Source of the DNA: Thermoproteota archaeon
GTDB taxonomy: Archaea; Thermoproteota; Thermoprotei; Thermofilales; B9-G17
Length of the DNA: 64,000 nt
Assembly: GCA_029258885.1 (NCBI GenBank)
Contig: JAPDJW010000019.1
Location: 12,056 to 76,055 of the forward strand
Direction of reading: 5' to 3'
Every line of letters begins with the position of its first letter. Position 1 is the stretch's first letter. Both the position numbers and the translations under genes were made by a program. This document shows positions 1 to 14,489 of this stretch, in pieces. Below the pieces are notes generated by a model. That model ran no database searches. It saw only the letters and a list, made by a program, of their open reading frames with translations, and was not told the origin of the DNA.

Positions 1-1512
1 GGTTTAGAAACAATAGCACAAACCGTAATGCTATGTAACCTTTTCTGGTCTAAAACGTTTAATCAGAAATTTCTTTTCTTTGTAAATAATAAAGAGGCAA
101 TAGAGCGTCTATATCATTTCATCCGTGATATAATAATAAGAGAACGTGGAGAAATCTATGATCACGTTTTTCTCTCTGATAGAAATCCCGGAACAAATAG
201 AAGCAACTACATATATAAATCATGGAAAAGTCATGAAAATGTGTTATTAAGCAATAATTATATCTTAATCAAGGCTTTAGAAGATCCACTTTACTGGCTC
301 TCGTTTACTTACATTTCATACTTAAGTAGTTTAATATCACAAAATAGGAATTTAGATAAAATATTAATATCTCTGAACTCTAATCAGAATATCCACTTTA
401 ACAATCTATTAAATCTTGCAGAGGCTACGTGTAACGGTATATTTAGAAGGAATACCTCATACTTAGAGATTCATCATGCGGATCTGAATAAAGCACGACG
501 TCAGAAAATAGAGGAAGAGCTTAAAAAGGGTAACTTGCTAGGAGTTCTTTGTACATCAACACTAGAGTTGGGAATAGATATCGACAATGTATCAACAATA
601 ATTCAGTATAAACCGCCGACAGCTGAGAGCTTTGTTCAAAGGCTTGGAAGGGCTGGTCGGAGACGAGAAACAATGTATATAGCAATAGGTTTCTTGCTTA
701 TAAGTAACTTTGATATATTATATCTCAACGAGGAATATTCGTCAAGAGAGCTATTTAACATTAGGCCAGCGTTGTTGCCTCACGATAATCATCGTATACG
801 CGCAAATGCTATTTACTATGCTATGTTTGATCTTTTAGCATACTTTGGTCATAAGCTAAGCTACCGTAGGAGAATTAGAGATGCTGACAATATAAAAAAT
901 GAAATTCAAAGTATTTGTCATACGTTAACCAGGTACGAGAAAACCTTTAAATCAATCATAGCCAGCCTCTATGGTCTTTCGATAGAAGATGTTGAAAAAG
1001 AGTATGAAACATTTAAAAGCTATTTGCAGCTTTTGTATGCTAACATAGAAAATATGAATATGGTACCCACATTTATTAAAAACATCATATATAATCTTTT
1101 GGGAAATATACAGTCTCTGAAGAATATATTGTCAAATATAATTCTTGACCTGCACTCAAGGGGGTTATTTAGTGAATCATCACAAAGGATAGCTCAGTTA
1201 ACAATGAAACTAGATGATTTATGTGAAAAATTGTGTGAAATAGATCTTTATTACGACGCATATCCGGATTATTTATTAAATCGTAAAAATACTACGTCAG
1301 CTAGCATTAAGGAATATAAACATATGCTAGAAGAAACGCTGAATGATCTATTGAGTATAAAAATAGGCAAGTATGGTATTCTAAGTTTGAAAATCGAAAA
1401 GGCGGAGAATAAAATAAGAGAAATTATAGGTGATCTTAAGGCAGTAATTTATTTCTTGGAAACAGGACTTAATTATCTTTTTACGAATAATCTTAGGCGC
1501 ATTTTGAGGTGA
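1..1512 (+). CDS. SF2 DEAD/DEAH helicase, C-terminal part (DpdJ/DrmA-like); 5'-truncated by the window edge
   Basis: Helicase C-terminal motifs: HHADLNKARRQKIEEELKKG, CTSTLELGID (motif V) and SFVQRLGRAGRR (motif VI). The frame is open from base 1 (GLETIAQTVM), so the listed ATG at 28 is internal. Confidence 0.85.
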   Translation, partial: GLETIAQTVMLCNLFWSKTFNQKFLFFVNNKEAIERLYHFIRDIIIRERGEIYDHVFLSDRNPGTNRSNYIYKSWKSHENVLLSNNYILIKALEDPLYWLSFTYISYLSSLISQNRNLDKILISLNSNQNIHFNNLLNLAEATCNGIFRRNTSYLEIHHADLNKARRQKIEEELKKGNLLGVLCTSTLELGIDIDNVSTIIQYKPPTAESFVQRLGRAGRRRETMYIAIGFLLISNFDILYLNEEYSSRELFNIRPALLPHDNHRIRANAIYYAMFDLLAYFGHKLSYRRRIRDADNIKNEIQSICHTLTRYEKTFKSIIASLYGLSIEDVEKEYETFKSYLQLLYANIENMNMVPTFIKNIIYNLLGNIQSLKNILSNIILDLHSRGLFSESSQRIAQLTMKLDDLCEKLCEIDLYYDAYPDYLLNRKNTTSASIKEYKHMLEETLNDLLSIKIGKYGILSLKIEKAENKIREIIGDLKAVIYFLETGLNYLFTNNLRRILR

Positions 1513-1518
1513 ATTGTT

Positions 1519-4011
1519 ATGCAAAAAAGAGTTATTGAGTTATTTAGGTTACTTAAAGAGGGTGTATGCTTTAGGAGGCTTTCGGATCCACTACATATGG
1601 GTAGAAGTACAGTTCAAGAATGTAGACTTATAAAAAAGTACTCTGTGCACCCTGATGGACAGGAAGAAGGACCTAAATGGCCAGTAACAGACGTTTTATA
1701 TACATGGCTTAGACCTTTAAATATCCGCCGACTAGAGATTCAGCAGCAAAGGCAATGGGGTATTCTACTTTCCCCATCTTATAGCCTCTATAGAGTCAGA
1801 AGGTTTGATCATAAAAGAAGGATAGTTGAAATAGAGCGGGTATGGGGATCGCGTATTTACATAGATTCCTTAGATTATCTTCCCTATAGTTGTTATCCCG
1901 ATTCGTCATTTAGCTATGGGGAGAAATCGAATATCCGGCAGGCATGCATCCCCGAATTTGTAACATATATTACTTTTAGTCTGCTTCCTGAAGCCGATAA
2001 ACCTTTGCTATACATATGCGGTAGGAAGCGGGATCATGTACTAGAAGCATTGAATCTCGTATATATCTCAAGACCGATGGAGGAACTTGATAGTATACCA
2101 GTTGTATACTCATATGATTGTAGCTTTGTATGGATAGGCGTCACGTTAGAAGATTTACGTAGAATGGGTTTCAGAATACCTCCAGTAAACTATAAAATAG
2201 AGGAAATTACAAGAAAGGTTTCAAAGACTATAAGTTTTAACAGGAAGTATGCTTACGATGACCTACTAGAGAGCCAGAGTGTAAATAGGGCTATACGTTC
2301 TCATGCCGTAGTTAAAGTATACATTGATGCTCTAGATGTGAAATATTCTTCATGGCGCCCTATATTGGATATTGAGGATCATGGTTTTTATGTTGGAATA
2401 GTGCCTAAAATATGTTTTAAGAAGGTACTTCTCGGATCACGCTTAAGAACAACCACCACAATGGCGTCTTCAACACCCATATATATTAACATGGGCACTT
2501 ATCAGAGAGGACATGGGGGAGGAATAGGCGTTAGGATAGTTAATAGTGAAGGACTGGCTATACTTTTCGAAAAAGATAAATTTAGGAAGCTTATAGAAGG
2601 TATAATTCTTAGTAACATCAAACTATTAAAGACGCTGCTATTAAAATACTTAATCTTAAGACATTGCTATGTAAAATACGTGGATTATTATGATTTTAAT
2701 GCAATAATTGATTTTATTCTAGCCTTAATATTTAATGAAGATGTTGAACTTATCAAAAAATACTACGACATATTTCATGCTGGACATACAGATGAAATAA
2801 TTTTTAACTTTAAGAAGATACGCTTAGATTATAATGATTTCATTAAGTATGCTACTAAAGTGGCACTTTATTCCCTAGCACAGGTATTAGCGAAAGTAAT
2901 TATATCGCATGTACTCCATACGAGATTAGATAATTTCACATTATATGTAAGTGAAGAATATAAAGTTAAAAAGGAAAATAGGGAGATTCAATGCAGCACC
3001 ATAATGATCTTGGAAAATTCTCACGAGGGTCTTGGCTTCATAGAACAGCTATATAAAATGGTTCGTACAAGTCCAGAACGGAATTTACTATCCCTTATAA
3101 TAGATCCAGCTCTTCAGATGCTAGTGGATAGCAAGTCAGGAAAAGATCTATGCTTACTATACCATGAGAGTATAAAGCAGAGAGATAGAAATCTAGTAGC
3201 TAGCTTATGTAGGAGCAGTCAAGAGCTAGATCAGATAAGAAGACACCTACAATACTTAGTACATGAATGGAATAAGAACGTAAATACGTATTTTCCATCC
3301 GACTTCATGCGACTCCTATTATATCGCTATTTGGGCAGAGTCGATCAAGACCTACGTCGAAAACTTAACATGGATGCGTTCCTTCGTAGTGCAATACCAC
3401 AGATCTATAACGTTGAGGCACCTTTCTGCTGGGATAGTTGCCAAAGATGTGTAAGGCTAAAGAAAGCATACTTATTATCACCAATAGATCAAATATTTTA
3501 CACTTCGAAGAGTCTGACAATAGGATTACTCAAAGCGTTATCAGATATCCTTAAACCTGGTAAAAATTCATCAATAAGAACAGGCTGTGGACTAGGTCAT
3601 AGTGTCTTAAACTTAATGAAGCATGCAAATAGTGAAATAAGAATAATGAGCCCTTGGATCTCGCCGGACATAGTAAGGCAATTAATAAATTTAGCACTAG
3701 AAAAAGGATTGAAGATAAGGATAATAACACATCCGCCAAAAAGAGGAGAACCAAAACCTCACATACAAGCCATACAAATCCTAAAAAAGGCATCTAAAAG
3801 GTTAGATAAAATTAAGGTAAAATATGATGAGAAAGTACATGCAAAAGTAATAATAATAGATGATAAACTTCTTATAACAGGTTCAATGAACTTAACGAAA
3901 AGAGGAACGGAAATCAATATCGAAAGTATAACTGTATGCAGAAATAAAGCAGAAATATACACTACTATTGCAGATTATGAAAAACTATGGATTAATTCTT
4001 TATCAGAATAA
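1519..4011 (+). CDS. DUF1998 (DrmB/DpdJ C-terminal-like) domain fused to a C-terminal PLD-family nuclease (DrmC/DpdK-like)
   Basis: DUF1998-like LYSLAQVLAKVI ... ILENSHEGLGFIE ... CWDSCQRC. PLD-like IRIMSPWIS ... HAKVIIIDDKLLITGSMNLT (single HKD motif). Starts 6 bp after the helicase stop. Confidence 0.75.
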   Translation: MQKRVIELFRLLKEGVCFRRLSDPLHMGRSTVQECRLIKKYSVHPDGQEEGPKWPVTDVLYTWLRPLNIRRLEIQQQRQWGILLSPSYSLYRVRRFDHKRRIVEIERVWGSRIYIDSLDYLPYSCYPDSSFSYGEKSNIRQACIPEFVTYITFSLLPEADKPLLYICGRKRDHVLEALNLVYISRPMEELDSIPVVYSYDCSFVWIGVTLEDLRRMGFRIPPVNYKIEEITRKVSKTISFNRKYAYDDLLESQSVNRAIRSHAVVKVYIDALDVKYSSWRPILDIEDHGFYVGIVPKICFKKVLLGSRLRTTTTMASSTPIYINMGTYQRGHGGGIGVRIVNSEGLAILFEKDKFRKLIEGIILSNIKLLKTLLLKYLILRHCYVKYVDYYDFNAIIDFILALIFNEDVELIKKYYDIFHAGHTDEIIFNFKKIRLDYNDFIKYATKVALYSLAQVLAKVIISHVLHTRLDNFTLYVSEEYKVKKENREIQCSTIMILENSHEGLGFIEQLYKMVRTSPERNLLSLIIDPALQMLVDSKSGKDLCLLYHESIKQRDRNLVASLCRSSQELDQIRRHLQYLVHEWNKNVNTYFPSDFMRLLLYRYLGRVDQDLRRKLNMDAFLRSAIPQIYNVEAPFCWDSCQRCVRLKKAYLLSPIDQIFYTSKSLTIGLLKALSDILKPGKNSSIRTGCGLGHSVLNLMKHANSEIRIMSPWISPDIVRQLINLALEKGLKIRIITHPPKRGEPKPHIQAIQILKKASKRLDKIKVKYDEKVHAKVIIIDDKLLITGSMNLTKRGTEINIESITVCRNKAEIYTTIADYEKLWINSLSE

Positions 4012-4180
4012 TATAAGTAATAATATGTGCTATATGGGTAGGTAATATGCGGGCTTGTTAAATTTCAGGCTATGCTTCATATAGTTCAATGGAATAATTG
4101 ACGTTTTATGTAAGAATAGATATTGGGCGTGTTTGAGCGTTGTTTTTATATATGTTTTTGGTATATTTTAGTGGTGAATT

Positions 4181-5647
4181 ATGGTTTCTGGTTTGTTGAG
4201 GTATGGTTTGAGGTTTAATCCTTTTCCTAGGGGTGAGGCTGAGCAGTATATTGATACTCCTGAGAGGTTGAATATTTTCCTGTTTGATATGGAGAGGAGG
4301 AGGCTTTGTGAATACGCTTCTGAGGTGTCGAATTCAAGTGTGAGTTTTGTAGTTACGGGTGGGTGGGGTACTGGTAAGTCTCTTTTTCTGCTGTATTTCT
4401 ATAGGTTGTTGAGGGAGAAGTTTGGATCTGATAATGTTGTTTTGGTGTATGTTAAGGCTCCTAGTAGCTCGTATGATATTCTTGCTAGGATATATGACTT
4501 CTTTGCTGGGAAGGGTCTTATTAAGAGGTCTAGAAGGGAGATGTCGAGGGATGATCTTCTGGGGGTTATTAGGGATGTTTCCGCTAGGCTTGTTGATGAG
4601 GGTAGAGTTGTCTATATAGCTGTTGATCAGCTTGAGAGTGTACTGGAGTGTCTTTTGTCTTCTTCGGAGAGTGGGGAAGTTGGTAGATTAGCTGAGACTT
4701 TGCGTGGAGGTCTTTCGGCGATGTTGGGTAGAAGATATGCGTTAGGTGTTTCTGCTATTGATGTATATTGGAGGCTTTTCTCTGAAGGTTGGGAGTCCAT
4801 TAGGGGTCTTGATATAATTACTTTGCGTCCTCTCCTTAGGGAGGAGGCGGCTAGGTTTATTGAAAGCTACCTTGATATTGCACGTGATAATGAATATATT
4901 AATGGTGTACCGGAACTTAGGGAGGCTATTAAAAATAATCCTCTTTATCCATTTACAATGGAGGCTGTTAATGAGCTTTGGGCTTATAGTCGTGGTGTTG
5001 AGAGATACTTGTGTAGCTGGGCTAGTAAGGCCTTGGATTTAGTCGTGGAGCAGAATATTCCCGAGATTGGTGTTGATCTCATTAGGATTGCTATTGATCA
5101 GAGATATGAGTTTTACATAACTGCTGGTAACGAGGTCTTTAGGTATCATTATACGCGTGTTGTTCCATTGGTTAGGGAGATTATGGCCTGGTTTTCGGAG
5201 AACGTTCCGAGTGCTAATATCGTGTACTTGGGGCAGGTGGATAATGTACTGCTTATCTCTGTTAAAGATAAGCCTGTGGCTATAATTAACATCTTTGGCT
5301 TCTTTAAATCTGACCATGTGAAGTATATTAAGGAGATTATTGATAACGGTGTAAAGATTGGAAACCGTATATTTAAGCCTGAAAAGGTTCTTATTCTCTT
5401 GTGGGTGTCTAAACGTCTATTGCCTAGTAAGACTATGGATGTGGAGGCTAGAATGTTTTGGTATGAAAATCGAGATAAAGTTTTAATTAAAAGAATTAAT
5501 CGAGACGATGTTTTAGCCTGGGGTCGTCTTGCTGCATACTATGCTATAATAACTGGTTGTCTACCCGATTATTTATCCTCTGATAAGGAGAGAGAGGAGG
5601 AGAAGCGTGAAATCCTTAGGATCTTAGGTATTTCCGATATTATGTAG
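4181..5647 (+). CDS. P-loop AAA+ ATPase with an uncharacterised C-terminal domain
   Basis: N-terminal FNPF, Walker A GGWGTGKS, Walker B YIAVDQLE, and lid-like PLYPFTMEAVNELWAYSRGVER. Confidence 0.8.
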   Translation: MVSGLLRYGLRFNPFPRGEAEQYIDTPERLNIFLFDMERRRLCEYASEVSNSSVSFVVTGGWGTGKSLFLLYFYRLLREKFGSDNVVLVYVKAPSSSYDILARIYDFFAGKGLIKRSRREMSRDDLLGVIRDVSARLVDEGRVVYIAVDQLESVLECLLSSSESGEVGRLAETLRGGLSAMLGRRYALGVSAIDVYWRLFSEGWESIRGLDIITLRPLLREEAARFIESYLDIARDNEYINGVPELREAIKNNPLYPFTMEAVNELWAYSRGVERYLCSWASKALDLVVEQNIPEIGVDLIRIAIDQRYEFYITAGNEVFRYHYTRVVPLVREIMAWFSENVPSANIVYLGQVDNVLLISVKDKPVAIINIFGFFKSDHVKYIKEIIDNGVKIGNRIFKPEKVLILLWVSKRLLPSKTMDVEARMFWYENRDKVLIKRINRDDVLAWGRLAAYYAIITGCLPDYLSSDKEREEEKREILRILGISDIM

Positions 5648-5665
5648 CTAGAGGGTTATATCGTC

Positions 5666-6562
5666 ATGGTTGGAAGGGAGGTGATTGAGTCTATTTACCA
5701 TAGATTCAGGGAGCAAGCAGTTATTTTGGGTTATGAGTCACTGAATTTATCTAGGTTTGGTGGCGAGCCAGACGCTATAGTAATCTCCCGTTATGGGGAT
5801 GGGCTTAAGCTTGATAATTCAAAGTTTGAGTATCGGGCAATAGTTTTCGAGTTTAAAACTTCTGTTAATTACAGGGATTTGGCTCAACTTATTCGCTATA
5901 AGACTGTTTATGGTCCAACTTTTTTAGTTGTTACACGCGAAAACAGTGTTCCATATCTCTTCAGGCAAATATTATCTAGTGAGGGTATAGGTCTGATTTA
6001 TTTCCGTAACGGTCAGCTTGCTTTAGAGCTTGAGGCTTGTAATGATCCCTCTAGGGAGGTAATGCTTGGAGAGATCATGTTCTGGTATGTTGTATCTATG
6101 ATAACTCATCTCATAAACTTATATTCGTCTGATAGGCGGGGATTTACGAGAATATACGATGCTTTGAGACGTAAGATGCTTTCCTCCAGCGAAATAGAGC
6201 TGGTTAAACTATATGGGGAATTGAAAAATATGCTTTGTTGCCTGAAACCTTCCTTAGAGGTGCTGGGTGTCTGCCTTAAGGTAACTGAGGATGTCCTGAA
6301 GATATTTGATCAAGAATGTCTACCTGAAAATTTCATGGAGCTAGTTAGATACATCAATGGTAAGCTAAATATGGTGCATGTTATTAGGGAGTTGAGGGAT
6401 CTTGTTGGTGATCCCGCTAAGCTTTGGGTTAGAGCTTCGAGCGGTCTCAAGTATTATTTAGGCCTTAAGCACCATCCTATAAATGCTAATAGTCTGGCTA
6501 GGTATATTGATAGCATCTATAGGAGGTTATCTATTCTAGATGAATGTGGGCTTGAAAAATGA
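5666..6562 (+). CDS. PD-(D/E)XK restriction-endonuclease-like protein
   Basis: GGEPDAIVI ... IVFEFKT ... LAQLIRY matches PD-(D/E)XK with a QxxxY motif. 18 bp after the ATPase. Confidence 0.65.
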   Translation: MVGREVIESIYHRFREQAVILGYESLNLSRFGGEPDAIVISRYGDGLKLDNSKFEYRAIVFEFKTSVNYRDLAQLIRYKTVYGPTFLVVTRENSVPYLFRQILSSEGIGLIYFRNGQLALELEACNDPSREVMLGEIMFWYVVSMITHLINLYSSDRRGFTRIYDALRRKMLSSSEIELVKLYGELKNMLCCLKPSLEVLGVCLKVTEDVLKIFDQECLPENFMELVRYINGKLNMVHVIRELRDLVGDPAKLWVRASSGLKYYLGLKHHPINANSLARYIDSIYRRLSILDECGLEK

Positions 6563-7441
6563 AATTGTTAATGGCTCGATTTTACCGTTTGGACTAAGCA
6601 ACCAGCTTACTTTTACTTTTCCATAGTATGCTGGCGTATCTAAGCTCCTCAGATATTCCCTAAATTCGTTCCATGTGAGCTTTCTATAGTTGAGTCTTTC
6701 AAGTTTTTTATTGAGAATTTCGAAGAGCCCTTCGGTTCCCCATATTTCCTTATTTCCTACTGCTGCTATATACCCGTATGGTGTGCCCTGCTTTAGGTGC
6801 CATCCTTTGTTTTGGCTTATTTCAATATATGTTTCCTCTAGCAACCTGTAGAGTGTTTTAAGTTCTGGTACTTTTGTGAGCTTCTTGTACAGTTTTTCGT
6901 AGGCGTCGGGTTTTACGTTTTTTACTTTCTGGAGACTCTGCCTGTATCCGATGATTATTCTTCTGACCGTTAGACCTAATATTTCCGCCAGTTCTGCCAG
7001 TTCTATCGGTACTACATTTGGATGTAGAAATAGAAGGTATGGGTATACATTTAATATACCTCTTCCTCTAGATCTCTTATAGGGCTTCCATATAACTCTC
7101 GAGAGTTCTATTGAATGCTTCAGCTCTTGTGGGTTTTCTAGGTTTTCCGGATATTTCCATTTTATTATGCTTAGTATCGCGTATGTTCTATCAGTTTTCC
7201 TTCTAGCGGTATTTAATGTGCTTAATATCACTAGAATATCGTTTTTGGATGCATTCATCCATGCTTTTACTGTCTGAGGAGAGGGAGGAACTCCCCATAG
7301 ATGGATGCATGAATATGAGTCTATCAAATTGTCGGGAACTAGGCCTATTATTTTCTCTATGGTTTCTCTGTCTATTCCCTCAACTATTGATCTATGTACG
7401 TTCTCGAAGCCGCCTCGTGATATATAAATATCTTTCTGCAT
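6536..7441 (-). CDS. EVE/PUA-like domain protein, putative modified-DNA reader
   Basis: LWGVPPSPQTVKAWMNASKNDILVIL resembles the WG...W..(M)..GD.(V)L pattern of EVE-like domains, followed by ELSRVIW ... YPYLLFL. Confidence 0.45.
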   Translation of the reverse strand: MQKDIYISRGGFENVHRSIVEGIDRETIEKIIGLVPDNLIDSYSCIHLWGVPPSPQTVKAWMNASKNDILVILSTLNTARRKTDRTYAILSIIKWKYPENLENPQELKHSIELSRVIWKPYKRSRGRGILNVYPYLLFLHPNVVPIELAELAEILGLTVRRIIIGYRQSLQKVKNVKPDAYEKLYKKLTKVPELKTLYRLLEETYIEISQNKGWHLKQGTPYGYIAAVGNKEIWGTEGLFEILNKKLERLNYRKLTWNEFREYLRSLDTPAYYGKVKVSWLLSPNGKIEPLTISFFKPTFI

Positions 7442-7494
7442 TCTGTTTCATTTGGTATAAAGCTTATTAACATTTAAATTTATATTATTTTACA

Positions 7495-8808
7495 ATGCCA
7501 ACTTTCTCAGATAAATGTTTGGACGTGTTTAAGTTTAAGCTTAGGTATTTTGGTTCTAAGCCTAGGGTATTTGAATATATTTCGAGATATTCGCAGGCTA
7601 ATGATGTTGTTTTTGATCCATTTGCTGGAATGGGAACTATTACTGTTCAGGCCCTTGCGATGGAAAGGAGGGCTATATACAATGATTTGAATCCTGTCGC
7701 ATATTTTGCATTTAAGACTATTGTTGAGGCGTCTTCTAGCGATCTTTGTTTTCGTGATGTTATTAGGGCTATGGGGGATGTTTTACGCTGTTTGGTTGCT
7801 ACTGTCAGGGATCGACGAGAAGGGCTTACTAAGATTAATGTGGAGGATCTTTACTTGGTGAACGATATTCCAGCTAGGTTCTTTGTGTGGAATGGTTCTG
7901 AGATAGAATATGCGGTGCTTGTAGATGGGACTATTGTGAGAAGTTCTATGGGAGATTTTACTTGTAGTTTTGAGCCACTACACTATAGTCTCGCTAAGCT
8001 TTACTATGAATCTGGGGTGCCGTTCTATACTAGGAGATCTGTTGACGATTTAGCTGAATTGTTTAGCAGGAGAAATTTCATAGCTCTAAAGGCTTTATAT
8101 GAAGCTATTGAGAGGAAGAGCGAAGGTTTAGTTAGGGACTTATTGAAAGTTGCCTTTCTCTATTCGCTCTATAAATGTAGTCGTATGCAGCATTTAAGCG
8201 GCGGTAGCTGGCCTGTGCCGAAGTATTGGGTGCCTAGGAGACATATCGAGTATAATCCTCTTATTGCCTTCAGGGAGAGCGTTAAAAGGATATTGAATGT
8301 TGTTAAATCGTTGAGGAGATATTTAGGTAAAGTATCTATAGGTGATCTAACAGCTCTGCTTAGAGGGGAGGCCGACCTAAATATCATCAATCGTGATGCT
8401 AGATATCTCGATTTTCTTCCTGATGCTTCCGTGGATTATATAATTACCGATCCACCCATGGTTGATGAGGTTCAATATCTTGAGTTAAGCTATTTCTATG
8501 CCGTTTGGCTTGGTTTAGATATGCCTTTTTCAAAGGAGTTTATAGTTAATCCTAAGCGTGGGCAGGATTTCGAATACTATATGCGATGTTTTCGATGTTT
8601 TATATCGGATGCGTATAGGGTTTTAAAGGATGACGGATTTTTAACGTTAATAATTCATGATGTTAAAGGATTATACCGTATTATCCTCGATATTGCCCGT
8701 GAACATGGATTTAAACTAGTGGGGATTGATACTAAGGTAAGATTTAGAGGCATGAATGCGAGGCTTAGCATGGATAGAGAGCTTTACATCACCTTCGGTA
8801 AGCATTAG
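7495..8808 (+). CDS. Amino (N6-adenine/N4-cytosine) DNA methyltransferase, DUF1156/DrmMI-like architecture
   Basis: SAM-binding motif I VFDPFAGMGT and NDLNPVAY near the N-terminus. Catalytic motif IV region DYIITDPPMVDEVQYLELS. Also AYRVLKDDGFLTL. Confidence 0.85.
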   Translation: MPTFSDKCLDVFKFKLRYFGSKPRVFEYISRYSQANDVVFDPFAGMGTITVQALAMERRAIYNDLNPVAYFAFKTIVEASSSDLCFRDVIRAMGDVLRCLVATVRDRREGLTKINVEDLYLVNDIPARFFVWNGSEIEYAVLVDGTIVRSSMGDFTCSFEPLHYSLAKLYYESGVPFYTRRSVDDLAELFSRRNFIALKALYEAIERKSEGLVRDLLKVAFLYSLYKCSRMQHLSGGSWPVPKYWVPRRHIEYNPLIAFRESVKRILNVVKSLRRYLGKVSIGDLTALLRGEADLNIINRDARYLDFLPDASVDYIITDPPMVDEVQYLELSYFYAVWLGLDMPFSKEFIVNPKRGQDFEYYMRCFRCFISDAYRVLKDDGFLTLIIHDVKGLYRIILDIAREHGFKLVGIDTKVRFRGMNARLSMDRELYITFGKH

Positions 8809-9065
8809 CTTATGTTAAATAATGTCGCGTTATGGCGTATTTTAATAAATAAGGCTAAAGTTGAAGTGAATGAAACTTGAGGCTTTATTGTGAATGTTAT
8901 GTCTAGTAAATGGAGTATAATTATGAGGTATTGGAGGCTGTCTACGTTTTAGCTTTTAGGATTTCGCCTGTGTTCAAGTATTTTTGTTTAGTTTGCTACT
9001 TTAGTTAGGTTGAATGTTGAGTAATATTTTTATTTGTATGGTTTTATTGGGAAGTTGGTGGTGTT

Positions 9066-9824
9066 GTGAGGGTTAGGGTTGGTGGTAGGGTTTTTGAGGT
9101 TTGTAGGGAGGATGTGTTTAAGGCTGTTAGGGGTGTTAAGCCTGAGCCTTTGTCTGGTAGGAGGAAGTATTATGTTGAGATTGATGGGAGGAGGTATCCT
9201 ATTAAGCAGGTTGTTGGTCTGCTGCTTGGTTTGCCTAGGGTGGCTTTTACGGCTATGGAAGCTTATAGGGTTCTTACGAGGCTTGGTTTTGAGGTGAAGT
9301 CGCGGGAGGATGTTAAGGTTTCCGGTGAGGTCTTGGCTGGCGAGTTGGTGGAGTGGATTTTTGATGAGTTAAGTAGGGTGTTTTCGTCTCATGATGGGCT
9401 TGAGGTTTTTGTTGTTCATAGGGCTAAGTTTGAGGGCTGGGTTAAGGTTGAGCTTGCCCGTGTTCTTGGGAGGCGTTTTAGGGATGTGGTTCCGGAGGTG
9501 GATAATATTGATCTTGTTGCTGATGGCTGGGCTATTGAGATAAAGACTGTGAATACTAACTATAGTTTTCCCGGTGTGCTTGTGAAGCATAGGCCTATAA
9601 CGAAGAATATTATGGATGTTGTGGGGGATATAAGGAAGCTTAAGGCTAAGGCTGGATATAGGTGTAGGGCTGTGTTTTTCGTGGTGTTTCCGCTGCCGGA
9701 TAGGGTTATGAATCAGTGGCGTATTCATCTTAGCAAGATAAGTAGGGAGTTAAAGCATATGTATTCACGTAAATTTAAGTTTAAAAACGGTGTGCCGGGA
9801 GTAATGTACTTGGGACTAATATGA
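9066..9824 (+). CDS. SCO5918/SBD-like N-terminal domain fused to a PD-(D/E)XK nuclease
   Basis: N-terminus VKPEP...YYVEIDGRRYPIKQVV...FTAMEAYRVLTRLGFEV. C-terminus DNIDLVADGWAIEIKTVNTNY. Confidence 0.55.
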   Translation: MRVRVGGRVFEVCREDVFKAVRGVKPEPLSGRRKYYVEIDGRRYPIKQVVGLLLGLPRVAFTAMEAYRVLTRLGFEVKSREDVKVSGEVLAGELVEWIFDELSRVFSSHDGLEVFVVHRAKFEGWVKVELARVLGRRFRDVVPEVDNIDLVADGWAIEIKTVNTNYSFPGVLVKHRPITKNIMDVVGDIRKLKAKAGYRCRAVFFVVFPLPDRVMNQWRIHLSKISRELKHMYSRKFKFKNGVPGVMYLGLI

Positions 9825-9915
9825 TCTGATATAGTTTACTTAGTCTATACGGATAATTTTGGTGTGTATCTTGGAAAGATATATACGTTTATGGTAATAT
9901 ATAGTTAGTGTAGCT

Positions 9916-10158
9916 GTGATTAGTGCTGTTAGGCTGGTTAATAGTTACTCCGATAGGTTTAATGAGATGGAGAGGAGAGTTGATGGGCTTTTGATGGATT
10001 TAGCTGCTGAGGTGGAGGAGGTTACTGGTTTTGCTGTAGAGATAGGTTCGTTGGATATTGATTTAAGGACTACTGTTAGTGTGCTTGAAAAGATGGGTGA
10101 GTCCTTTTATAGGAGGGCTAAGGCGGTTCTGGTTAATGAGGAGCTATTGGTATGGTAG
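9916..10158 (+). CDS. Small hypothetical protein
   Basis: 80-aa ORF with plausible composition and no recognised motif. Confidence 0.4.
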   Translation: MISAVRLVNSYSDRFNEMERRVDGLLMDLAAEVEEVTGFAVEIGSLDIDLRTTVSVLEKMGESFYRRAKAVLVNEELLVW

Positions 10159-10350: not shown

Positions 10351-10906
10351 CTAGCAAGCTCCCTTGAACAAATATTCTTTTAGCGTGTTTAGGGCTTCTC
10401 TGCGTGTTAGTGTGCCGTACCTAGAAAGGTATAGGAAATCTAGTAGGGTTTTTTGAGGTCTGAATATATTAGCTCGTCTCTTTTAATAAGGCCGAACTCC
10501 GCCATCCCCTGCTTAATTTTTACGAGTTTTACTTTTTCACCTACTATTTTTATGATTTTAGGTCTGAAGAGGGAGTAGCTTACTATGAAGATTACGTCAT
10601 AGTGCTCGTGGGTTACCCCATTTAGCCTTAATGCGGTATAGAGGCCGAAGTACCATTTGTCCCCAACTTGTTCATACCTGGCGATAAAATCCTTAGAGGA
10701 TTCAAGCTCTTCCTTAATTTGAACTCCTCGATAGTCTTAACATAGTAGAGGCCTCTTAGTATTCTGATCACATATCCATATCTTATAATGTGGTTCATGA
10801 AGTAGTCGGGATTTACTTTAAACCTCTCACATAAGTCAGCTATTTCAACCCTAGTTATAACCTTGTCTCCATGCCTTGATAACAGATATCTAGTTACGGC
10901 TTTCAT
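10351..10906 (-). pseudogene. AbiEi/COG5340-type (type IV TA antitoxin-like) wHTH protein with two frameshifts
   Basis: The listed 92-aa ORF (wHTH, RILRGLYYV) continues in another frame as WYFGLYTALRLNGVTHEHYDVIF...YSDL. After a second shift in an A-run it reads KTLLDFLYLSRYG. Confidence 0.7.
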
Positions 10907-11441: not shown

Positions 11442-12839
11442 ATGTGTGTTTTGTTGTTATATTTGAGGATGTTGTTGTGTAGGTGTTGTTTGGGCGGGTT
11501 GTTGCGGGGTAGGATGGGTGGTTTGGAGAGGTTGTTGAGGGTTTATTGTCTGGCTAATGCTTTGGGTGGGCTTGGGGGGACTGTTTATGTGAGGAAGGAT
11601 TTTGTTTTGAGGGTTGAGAGTAGGTCTAGGGGGTTGTTGCCGCTTTATAAGGGTTTTTCTGCCGACTATATGATGCAGTATTTCTTGAGGTCGTATATTG
11701 TATCGGATTTTATTGATCTGTTGTTGTTCTTTATTAAGGTTTTAGGGGATGTTAGGGTTCATGTTAAGGGTAGGGTTCAGTTGATTATGGTTGAGGATTT
11801 TTCATCTGTTTCCTTGGAGAGGGAGCCTACAAGCTATTTGGCTAAGGTGTCTCTGAGTTTTCCTGGACTATTTAGAGGTGGATGTGTGGATTTATCTGTG
11901 AGGGATTACCTTTATGCCCGTGCAATAGAGGCTGTGAGGAGGGGGCTTAGCGGGAATCTGTCTATTGAATCCTATGGTGTTCGGGGGCCTTGGAGGGGGC
12001 TTAATGGTAGGCAGGTGGGTTTTCTCGTTAGGTCTTTGAGGAACTATTCTCTTGAGGAGCTTTACTCGATATTTGCTTCGCTTAATCCATCTAGGAGTGA
12101 TTTTGAGTTGAGGGCGGGTCTGGATATATTCGAGTATGGTCGGGATGTGGCTGAGGTTTTTCTCTCGGTGTTGGGTAGGTTTAAGGGTAGGGCCGTATGT
12201 GGGAGGCTGAATAGGGCTGTATCGGAGGTTGAGGCGGCTGTATTGGGGAATAGGGATAAGCTTAACCCAATACTGCCTGATAGGGGGTTTGTGGAATGGC
12301 TGTTGGAGTCTATCGAGCATTTATCTGAGTGGGCGAGGATTGATAGGAGCGAGTTGCGAAGGATGCTTCCGTTCCTTGATAGGAGTGTGGTTATAAGGCT
12401 GTGGGAGAGGTCTGTAGATGACCTCTTTATGGGCTTTTATGCGGGTACGTGTATTGCGCTGGATGATAGGAAGGTTATGCACGAATACATCTTTGATCCA
12501 TATACTATCTTCTTTAGGATATACGTTAATGAGAAGCCTATTGGCCACGTAAAGGTATTTATCTGTAGGGATGAGGATGGAGAAGTAGTGCTACACATCG
12601 ACTACATAGGCTTAGCTGGTGGGAAGTATAGGAGGCTTCACGATGCTTTAAAGCTGTACTCCCTATCAGCTGTAGTAAGGTATGCAATGTCTAAAGGCTA
12701 TAGGAGGGTGTATGTTGCAAGGGATATTGTGCAACTACCTCTGAAACCGGTTGAGAATAGGCTGGCTAAATTGGGTAGACACGTGTATTCACAGTATCTC
12801 GATAGTGATAAGTTCCTAATATGGAGTTCATCTACATAG
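11442..12839 (+). CDS. Hypothetical protein with a possible C-terminal GNAT-like fold; true start may be the ATG near 11514
   Basis: Long ORF. C-terminal LWERSVDDLFMGFYAGTCIAL...DPYTIFFRI...IGHVKVFI...LHIDYI. Confidence 0.6.
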   Translation: MCVLLLYLRMLLCRCCLGGLLRGRMGGLERLLRVYCLANALGGLGGTVYVRKDFVLRVESRSRGLLPLYKGFSADYMMQYFLRSYIVSDFIDLLLFFIKVLGDVRVHVKGRVQLIMVEDFSSVSLEREPTSYLAKVSLSFPGLFRGGCVDLSVRDYLYARAIEAVRRGLSGNLSIESYGVRGPWRGLNGRQVGFLVRSLRNYSLEELYSIFASLNPSRSDFELRAGLDIFEYGRDVAEVFLSVLGRFKGRAVCGRLNRAVSEVEAAVLGNRDKLNPILPDRGFVEWLLESIEHLSEWARIDRSELRRMLPFLDRSVVIRLWERSVDDLFMGFYAGTCIALDDRKVMHEYIFDPYTIFFRIYVNEKPIGHVKVFICRDEDGEVVLHIDYIGLAGGKYRRLHDALKLYSLSAVVRYAMSKGYRRVYVARDIVQLPLKPVENRLAKLGRHVYSQYLDSDKFLIWSSST

Positions 12840-13403: not shown

Positions 13404-14489
13404 ATGTTCTTTGATCCTAAGCCTAAGATGTGTAGGGAGGATTTATATGATAGGGAGAGAGAGTTGCGGGAGTTTGAGTTGGCTTTATCGTCGTCACCTT
13501 TGACTGTTGTTACGGGTATTAGAAGGCTGGGTAAGACCTCCCTTATTCTGGTGGGTTTGAGTGGGAGGCCGAGTGTTATAGTGGATTTAAGGGGTGTTGC
13601 TCAGGCTAGGAGGGCGCTTTATAAGAGGATAGAGTTTGCATTAAATCAGTTCTTTAGGAGTCATAGAAGCTTATGGGATAGGGTGCGTGATAAACTTAGG
13701 GTGGTTAGTGGGGTTGAGGTGCTGGGGGTGGGGGTTTATCTCTCCTGGGGTAAGGGTGAGACTGATCTCGCGGCTCTTTTTAGGAGCCTTGAGGACTATG
13801 AGGTGGTTTTGGTGTTTGATGAGGTGCAGTATATAAGGGGTCCCATGGGGAGGGAGTTGGCGGAGACAATAGCGTATCTCTACGACTACTCCGACTTAAG
13901 GATTGTTGTTAGTGGGTCTGAGGTTGGGCTTCTCTACGATTTTCTGGGGTTAGAGAATCCTAGGGCTCCGCTCTATGGCAGATACTTTAGGGAGGTGAGG
14001 CTAGCGCCATTTACTAGGGAGCAGAGCATAGATTTCCTGAGGAGAGGTTTTGAGCAATTCAGGGTTGATGTGCCCGAGGACGTGCTGGAGGAGGCGGTTG
14101 AGAAGCTGAATGGAATAGTGGGCTGGCTGGTTTACTTCGGTCTAAGGTATATTGAGAAGCGCGGCGGAGATGGTGTAGTTGAGGAAATTGTAGAGGAGGC
14201 TGGCAGGCTAGCGCTGGAGGAGTTTATTAAGTTCACTAGGAAGCATCTGCCAGCGGATAAGAGGATGCTAGAGGTTGCGAAAGCTATAGCTCGGGGACAG
14301 GATACTTGGACGAGTATAAAGCGGCATCTAGAGGACGTGGAGAAGAGAACTGTCCCAGATATGACGCTCAGCCGTACGTTAAAGGCACTATTAAAATCAT
14401 CCTATGTAAAGAAGATTGTCGAGGGGAGAAATATTCGCTACGTTATAGCTGACCCAACGTTAAAGTATGCGCTACAGAAACTCGGCTAA
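13404..14489 (+). CDS. Archaeal ATPase (ATPase_2/AAA) with C-terminal wHTH
   Basis: MFFDPKPK..EDLYDRERE, Walker A GIRRLGKTS, Walker B VFDEVQ, SGSEVGLL, YGRY, C-terminal YVIADPTL. Confidence 0.9.
   Translation: MFFDPKPKMCREDLYDRERELREFELALSSSPLTVVTGIRRLGKTSLILVGLSGRPSVIVDLRGVAQARRALYKRIEFALNQFFRSHRSLWDRVRDKLRVVSGVEVLGVGVYLSWGKGETDLAALFRSLEDYEVVLVFDEVQYIRGPMGRELAETIAYLYDYSDLRIVVSGSEVGLLYDFLGLENPRAPLYGRYFREVRLAPFTREQSIDFLRRGFEQFRVDVPEDVLEEAVEKLNGIVGWLVYFGLRYIEKRGGDGVVEEIVEEAGRLALEEFIKFTRKHLPADKRMLEVAKAIARGQDTWTSIKRHLEDVEKRTVPDMTLSRTLKALLKSSYVKKIVEGRNIRYVIADPTLKYALQKLG

Follow-up and report, generated by a model that had tools for sequence, protein, structure and literature searches.

Gene content of the locus

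Do the seven clustered genes at the left end of this archaeal stretch form one defence system, and is that system of a named kind? The stretch, called the window below, comprises 64,000 nucleotides of a Thermoproteota archaeon (assembly GCA_029258885.1, contig JAPDJW010000019.1, positions 12,056 to 76,055; here contig C6:12056-76055). The locus lies at window 1-9824, and we fetched a further 12 kb from upstream as L001. The host genome is archaeal, measures 2.1 Mb in 26 contigs and is 99.9% complete. We lean slightly towards reading the locus as a composite restriction-modification-like defence system around one small amino-methyltransferase, the product of open reading frame (ORF) 6, with two effector modules: module H, consisting of a 524-amino-acid (aa) protein, a helicase and a DUF1998-phospholipase D (PLD) fusion, and module T, consisting of an ATPase, a nuclease and a DNA-modification reader. 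The genes are as follows, in window coordinates unless a contig is named.

C6:8890-10464, module H, conserved 524-aa protein upstream of the helicase
1-1512, plus strand, module H, ORF1, C-terminal 503 aa of the helicase (whole gene C6:10481-13567, 1028 aa)
1519-4011, plus strand, module H, ORF2, 830-aa fusion of DUF1998(MZB) to PLD, corresponding to DrmB (or the DpdJ C-part) joined to DrmC (or DpdK)
4181-5647, plus strand, module T, ORF3, 488-aa P-loop ATPase with Walker A GxWGTGKS and Walker B-like DQLE
5666-6562, plus strand, module T, ORF4, 298-aa nuclease, N-terminal PD-(D/E)XK domain (about residues 1-129) and helical C-terminal part
6536-7441, minus strand, module T, ORF5, 301-aa reader, convergent with ORF4 and divergent from ORF6
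7495-8808, plus strand, ORF6, 437-aa amino-methyltransferase, motif I FDPFAGMGT before motif IV DPPM
9066-9824, plus strand, ORF7, 252-aa protein with an SCO5918 domain and a PD-(D/E)XK nuclease, an island neighbour outside the conserved unit

A preliminary description of this DNA had reported seven clustered ORFs, six on the plus strand and an EVE-like gene on the minus strand, and all were recovered at those positions. Its remark that the first 4 kb are AT-richer was borne out by a composition scan (GC 0.33-0.35 at 1-4000 against 0.39-0.42 at 4000-10000). Its domain calls held for the helicase, DUF1998-PLD protein, ATPase, nuclease, EVE-like reader and methyltransferase, but the sulfur-binding-domain (SBD)-like label of ORF7 found no sequence support. 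Of the two modification readers that it proposed, ORF5 was upheld by its YTH/EVE fold, and ORF7, in which SBD likeness was not found by sequence, was not.

Linkage of both modules to ORF6-family methyltransferases

We examined 13 loci carrying module H (ours, L023, L024-L027, L028, L030, L038, L040 and L050-L052). H genes and an ORF6-family methyltransferase shared one cluster in 13 of 13, directly adjoining each other except in the three loci that combine H with T. The further diverse members L050, L051 and L052 each have such a methyltransferase alongside, including L052, where a single 1615-aa helicase-DUF1998-PLD protein takes the place of the separate genes. ORF2 relatives in 401 genomes of the phylum comprised one full-length protein (G380, 58% identical) and four distant ones; in all five cases a helicase homologue adjoins the ORF2 homologue and an ORF6 homologue lies directly next to both. 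A large protein database held seven close ORF2 clusters (46-61% identical, one labelled Thermoprotei archaeon), and their contigs carry a four-gene operon of methyltransferase, ~540-aa protein, helicase and DUF1998-PLD, in which the ~540-aa protein is homologous to our upstream 524-aa gene. A profile search of 1.84 billion representatives returned 68 ORF2-family cluster representatives at E<=1e-30, some of them ~1600 aa long with the helicase fused on.

Module T was likewise accompanied by an ORF6-family methyltransferase in all four loci that carry it (ours, L036, L038 and L040). In L036, L038 and L040 its genes retain both order and strands, with identities of 43-49% for the ATPase and reader and 25-33% for the nuclease. 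From these four contexts we conclude that the T trio is a conserved unit always found with a methyltransferase. Among 5.8 billion proteins there were four other ATPase clusters (38-49% identical), and homologues of the next two genes follow the ATPase in each of the three relatives whose contig is long enough; a related-locus search with the ATPase gave just two irrelevant bacterial stretches. The reader was found in one of the 401 genomes of the phylum, and two further weak reader-like matches (G171 and G146) were set aside as lying in unrelated contexts. The T-carrying loci compare with ours as follows (percentages are identities).

L038/L039: SNF2+NOV_C 74%, MBL 64%, helicase 24%, DUF1998-PLD 24%, ATPase 43%, nuclease 30%, reader 43% (minus strand), methyltransferase 44%
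L040: order of L038 kept from the helicase onwards
L036: GmrSD, methyltransferase 32%, ATPase 48%, nuclease 33%, reader 49% (minus strand); no helicase or PLD

The order H-T-methyltransferase thus occurs in ours and in two metagenome contigs, L038 and L040. Since other archaeal contigs repeat the order of six of the seven genes, the locus is not a random gene mix, the outcome that the preliminary description had named as fatal to its proposal; the synteny that it asked for in other archaea was present, and its pairing of a Dpd/Drm-type core (helicase, DUF1998, PLD) with a methyltransferase was sustained. Its single seven-gene locus needs redrawing: six genes recur in order, but the locus is composite, ORF7 is unconserved, and the unit begins upstream with the 524-aa gene and the N-terminus of the helicase, whose gene starts 1575 bases before the window. 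No named system was matched in full, whether DISARM, Dpd or Druantia, in PADLOC, NCBIfam and Pfam scans, in line with the earlier impression.

ORF6 and ORF7

ORF6 matches N6_N4_Mtase (4e-12) and MTase_II (3e-29), is D12-like, and matches PglX (1.5e-19) on part of its length only; no DrmM model was found among the best 25 of the 54 PADLOC families matched. At motif IV, ORF6 and the L038 and L040 enzymes have DPPM; five loci have DPPH, and three have DPPY or DPPF. ORF6 is the sole close member of its family in the host genome, and we predict from its sequence and setting that it is a self-marking enzyme common to H and T.

ORF6 and ORF7 are adjacent on the same strand, and UniRef names the relatives of the C-terminal ~160 aa of ORF7, a widespread family of ~162-aa proteins, restriction endonuclease or DpnII-like, as an ordinary Type II restriction-modification pair surrounded by unrelated island cargo would lead one to expect. 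We regard such a pair as highly improbable. No ORF7 homologue was present in any of the 12 related H or T loci, and none adjoins their methyltransferases; the two genes are 257 bp apart; and at the two loci checked, relatives of the ORF7 nuclease adjoin a separate SCO5918 gene (L046) or an Mrr_N gene (L047). Residues 9-82 of ORF7 match SCO5918_fam (8e-12), and searches of solved structures with the protein or a three-sequence profile matched no SBD structure, the profile giving no match at all. We treat ORF7 as an independent two-domain nuclease, separate from the conserved unit.

One composite system or two neighbours

The two modules differ in their affinities. With the cassettes of L023 and L030 our H genes share 56-61% identity, against only 24% with the H modules of L038/L040, which belong to a different H branch. 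ORF6 is 34% identical to the L023/L030 methyltransferases, which are 61-70% alike mutually. Near position 4000, where GC content changes, the AT skew also flips sign, and a 170-bp AT-rich gap separates ORF2 from ORF3 at the H/T boundary. The mismatch between H and methyltransferase identities, the single family member in the genome and the composition break suggest that a type A cassette (524-aa protein, helicase and DUF1998-PLD) lacking its own methyltransferase may have replaced an L038-like H ahead of T and the methyltransferase, which would leave ORF6 as the sole candidate partner.

The same observations would also suit two independent systems lying side by side, a self-contained four-gene restriction-modification-like system of T and ORF6 next to an H cassette that arrived without a methyltransferase and works alone or is inactive. 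We think this somewhat unlikely, yet much of the evidence that weighs against a joint system speaks for it. H and T each occur alone with a methyltransferase, T in L036 and H with its own enzyme in the type A operons L023, L028 and L030, so they may be two independent systems sharing an island. ORF6 is closer to the L038/L040 enzymes (44%) than to those of type A. Besides the composition break, a TATA-like box, read by eye in the gap before the ATPase gene, suggests that H and T may be on separate transcripts; a sigma-70 promoter scan gave only shuffle-level results, the sigma-70 model not being relevant for archaea. The DUF1998 histidine and cysteine motifs are partly degenerate: the ORF2 lineage lacks the fourth cysteine of the cluster, and in our ORF2 the second histidine of HxxxH is a glutamine. 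In ORF6, motif I is intact but the DPPM of motif IV lacks an aromatic residue, which casts some doubt on the activity of the enzyme. L038 and L040 are 88-92% alike and count as one further lineage, so that H and T co-occur in two lineages only. Adjacency is, moreover, common in defence islands, the source of all loci compared.

Set against two separate systems is, in the first place, the presence of an ORF6-family methyltransferase in the cluster of every one of the 13 H modules. An H module without any cognate methyltransferase ought to disappear or to harm its host. The catalytic motifs of the helicase and the PLD domain are unbroken. The recurrence of the H-T-methyltransferase order with another H lineage in L038/L040 further argues for selection on the combination.

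Module H and its relation to DISARM, Dpd and Druantia

The ORF1 helicase is a YprA/DpdJ-like superfamily 2 (SF2) protein that matches the DpdJ N-part (9e-37), PADLOC DrmA (1.6e-18 and 7e-16), DEAD, ResIII and Helicase_C (3e-17 for ORF1), with YprA and Lhr among the top solved-structure matches. Its motifs (Walker A GTGKT, DEAH, SAT and QRxGR) are all in place, and orthologues 48-57% identical adjoin DUF1998-PLD in L023, L028 and L030. The C-terminal PLD domain of ORF2 matches PLDc_2 (1e-20), DrmC (4.5e-15) and DpdK (6e-15), and its HKD motif (HxK..D..GSxN) is intact. The central part was harder to place: residues ~438-604 match the DpdJ C-part at 5e-4 to 1.5e-3, one family member matches Pfam MZB/DUF1998 at 5.6e-6, and the PADLOC DrmB models did not match ORF2. 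In an alignment of ORF2 with five relatives, the DUF1998 hallmarks ExxxGGxG and CxDxCxxC were conserved.

The 524-aa protein had no family match, and a solved-structure profile search with its family was empty. Each H lineage has an extra protein of ~420-540 aa without a family match, from three unrelated families that include our 524-aa protein, and these proteins may be lineage-specific sensor or specificity subunits. Identity of the 524-aa family with the 418/428-aa accessory proteins of L025/L026 was rejected (hhalign probability 0.1). The other extra proteins are:

L025:14311-15567, minus strand
L026:14371-15657, minus strand
L050:9539-10933, minus strand
L024:3982-5403, minus strand
L052:3887-5323, plus strand

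DISARM, as Ofir et al. reportedly described it in 2018, consists of DrmA, DrmB and DrmC plus either DrmMI/DrmD or DrmMII/DrmE. Our locus has a DrmA-type helicase with DUF1998 and a PLD nuclease (the C-terminal domain of ORF2). As in DISARM, its SF2 YprA-family helicase and its DUF1998 'canopy' protein come from separate genes, and a DNA methyltransferase is linked to them; a DISARM-type methyltransferase and an operonic DrmD or DrmE were not found. It differs in having DUF1998 and PLD in one polypeptide and an additional lineage-specific 524-aa protein. Its methyltransferase family is small (360-570 aa) with motif I before motif IV, unlike the PglX-like DrmMI or the C5 enzyme DrmMII. Neither DrmD nor DrmE is conserved with the core, and the type A operons L023, L028 and L030 lack the SNF2 gene found upstream of ours. 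H with its methyltransferase thus follows DISARM logic with a different gene set. The DISARM-like clade includes many uncharacterised classes (Bell et al. 2025, 10.1101/2025.09.15.676423), and the H core fits these.

DpdJ and DpdK are the best family matches of the helicase and ORF2, but the NCBIfam scores stay far below the cut-offs (DpdJ 116.5 bits against 800, DpdK 55 bits against 100), and DpdJ is split, its C-part being fused to DpdK. The modification enzyme is a methyltransferase, and the locus has no dpdA-C/TGT 7-deazaguanine genes; ours also keeps part of the Cys cluster that canonical Dpd lost. Among related loci only the distant L051 has TGT genes nearby. There, a methyltransferase-helicase-DUF1998PLD locus (L051:8527-12921, minus strand) lies beside two TGT-family genes, one with DUF6884, and a BrxC/BrxD-like gene, a cluster that looks like a Dpd-like 7-deazaguanine system. 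Against Druantia, our locus gives partial DruE matches on the Helicase_C region only and has no partner genes (DruA-D or DruH).

Two type A operons are followed, a few genes further downstream, by stand-alone EVE genes of 164-166 aa (L028:13818-14312 and L030:13278-13778, both minus strand), and the one in L028 adjoins a 1044-aa MmeI-like enzyme.

Module T and its relation to Type IV systems

The T trio had no family match in Pfam, NCBIfam, PADLOC or PHROGs beyond weak domain-level matches of ORF3 to AAA_22 (1e-4), KAP (3.5e-4) and AAA_16, none being to AAA_5; a solved-structure profile search with the ATPase family gave no match. PHROGs likewise returned nothing for any unexplained protein of the locus, and an ESM Atlas feature search with the 524-aa protein and the reader reached 0.80-0.85 to unrelated small clusters only. 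For ORF4, family-wide invariance of P35, D36, E62 and K64 (PD..ExK) agreed with the structure: residues 1-129 of the AlphaFold2 (AF2) model, with a per-residue confidence (pLDDT) of ~60-90 in the N-domain, gave Z scores of 10.0 to AF2093, 8.7 to NucS and 8.3 to Can2, and nearly all top rows were PD-(D/E)XK nucleases.

ORF5 has an N-terminal PUA-like YTH/EVE domain (AF2 pLDDT 83, predicted template-modelling score (pTM) 0.83). Its best Foldseek match was the N-domain of Thermococcus gammatolerans McrB in complex with 5-methylcytosine (m5C) DNA (6p0f/6p0g, E 1.7e-7), followed by the EVE proteins PH1033 and MJECL36 (3e-4) and, below them, YTH, THYN1 and ASCH. The family has the invariant aromatic residues W49, W61, Y97, W118 and Y135. 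The C-terminal part, with a helix-helix-strand-strand order in the predicted secondary structure, looks winged-helix-like. In the divergent spacer between the reader and methyltransferase genes, only an AT-rich TTTAAATTTA stretch is common to ours and L038/L040, and this could simply be TATA boxes.

These matches raise the alternative that T is a Type IV system, in which the reader would recognise foreign modified bases and recruit the ATPase and nuclease like a split McrBC, the methyltransferase serving H only or being a bystander. In structure the reader comes closest to an archaeal McrB N-domain that reads DNA, Type IV enzymes typically take their specificity from EVE and YTH domains (PMC7641849), and a GmrSD gene adjoins T in L036. 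McrBC-type systems such as that of T. gammatolerans McrB combine a same-fold reader with an NTPase and a PD-(D/E)XK nuclease, and DISARM-like cassettes and methyltransferases have been linked with McrBC-type systems (Bell et al. 2024, PMC11090510). In ours, however, these are three separate genes, and the ATPase is AAA_22/KAP-like and does not match the AAA_5 GTPase of McrB. We consider the Type IV role unlikely and favour sensing of the host's own mark by the reader because T is strictly linked to a methyltransferase in four of four loci, even in the H-less L036, an argument that bears on the role indirectly. DISARM class 1 offers a parallel, since its helicases carry an N-terminal EVE-like domain (Bell et al. 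2025, 10.1101/2025.09.15.676423); there the reader is fused to DrmA, whereas ours is a separate gene with its own ATPase and PD-(D/E)XK nuclease.

Proposed mechanism

For the composite methyltransferase-centred system, we infer a mechanism from the domain identities, the intact catalytic motifs and the conserved gene linkage. ORF6 would mark host DNA by methylation. If H works as DrmAB does (PMC9142583), the helicase would assemble with the DUF1998 'canopy' part of ORF2 on invading DNA and the complex would translocate; the PLD domain, which has a single HKD motif and would act as a dimer, would cut DNA without the host methyl mark. The reader would sense the methyl mark and either spare self DNA or regulate the divergent methyltransferase gene, and the ATPase would drive the PD-(D/E)XK nuclease on unmarked DNA.

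A more specific version, which we hold to be quite unlikely as it stands, is that one small methyltransferase licenses two different restriction modules, with a stand-alone YTH/EVE reader of the host mark gating an ATPase-driven PD-(D/E)XK nuclease and with H cassettes as interchangeable plug-ins. If true, restriction-modification would here be gated by a reader, a form not yet described. The locus offers a compact archaeal example of DISARM-like classes, in which a core of three to four genes includes a small methyltransferase and a DUF1998 domain joined to PLD, and defines a rare trio of ATPase, nuclease and YTH/EVE reader unrecognised by domain or defence libraries. Because the methyltransferase is the element common to both modules, the locus could serve as a test bed for self/non-self discrimination in methylation-based systems and for effector swapping on one modification platform.

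Upstream genes and the surrounding island

The preliminary description had proposed looking upstream for dpd, drmD or drmE genes. No TGT/dpdA-like gene was matched among the 16 long ORFs scanned from the contig start to window 14500; a DrmD-like SNF2 gene is present, but in a DUF1156-DUF499 operon. The genes upstream of the window are:

C4:176913-181043 (L049), DUF1156 methyltransferase and start of the DUF499 gene
L001:3-5995, remainder of the DUF499 gene, 182-aa protein and SNF2+NOV_C helicase
L001:6005-7252, MBL/beta-CASP (RNase J-like) gene, directly after the SNF2 gene
L001:7262-8695, minus strand, HEPN_Swt1 protein (PADLOC PDC-M34B, 5e-20)

Contig C6 begins within the DUF499 gene, and the end of contig C4 carries the DUF1156 methyltransferase and the lacking DUF499 N-terminus; the C4 end covers DUF499 profile positions 2-277 and the C6 start positions 295-1023, so the two contigs most likely join at this gene. 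From there the order is DUF499, 182-aa gene, SNF2+NOV_C, MBL/beta-CASP, HEPN_Swt1 (minus strand), 524-aa gene and helicase. The SNF2+NOV_C gene, 4.5 kb upstream, scores 2e-60 to HmaA and 4e-57 to DrmD. The DUF1156 methyltransferase, DUF499, 182-aa and SNF2+NOV_C genes are a complete DUF499-centred BREX-related (Hma-type) system, split by the C4/C6 break and of a known kind (PMC7641849; 10.64898/2026.09.23.753747). DUF499-centred systems include Hma and a COG1743-DUF499-SNF2-nuclease set with EVE, and MANTIS is type 2 (PMC7641849; 10.64898/2026.09.23.753747). In combining a methyltransferase with an ATPase, a helicase-nuclease and, optionally, an EVE reader, they resemble our locus, but our seven genes belong to other protein families and the upstream set is a separate operon. 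The MBL/beta-CASP gene has a 64% identical copy in L038 and a 31% relative within the L026 helicase operon; the HEPN_Swt1 insertion on the opposite strand is present only in our genome.

We read the region as the right-hand portion of an archaeal defence island that varies between strains. One hydrothermal-vent metagenome run carries the window DNA almost in full, and near-identical pieces of it occur in two runs of other studies, a sediment metagenome and one without a habitat label; none of the sequencing runs listed as carrying window DNA was an RNA run. A lone contig joint (3838->8325) in X1 was disregarded, one side having only 21 letters. At window 10359-10371, all 4 metagenome runs have loose contig ends with a similar foreign left flank, and depth climbs rightward (in X3, for example, from ~5 to 24-30). 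The right flank is single-copy in the genome, and no tRNA or Rfam match lies nearby; this position looks like the right border of the island.

Next to the island on the other side of the C4/C6 break, a 465-aa Piwi-domain protein (2.5e-10; L049:2762-4159, minus strand, which is C4:172761-174158) is possibly a prokaryotic Argonaute; its two unannotated neighbours, of 356 and 472 aa, are on the same strand. To the right of the probable border, window 11442-12839 contains a 465-aa ORF without a family match, and window 13404-14489 encodes an archaeal ATPase_2 (PF01637) protein with an MCM_C-like winged helix, which has paralogues at C6:31040-32140 and on contig C1.

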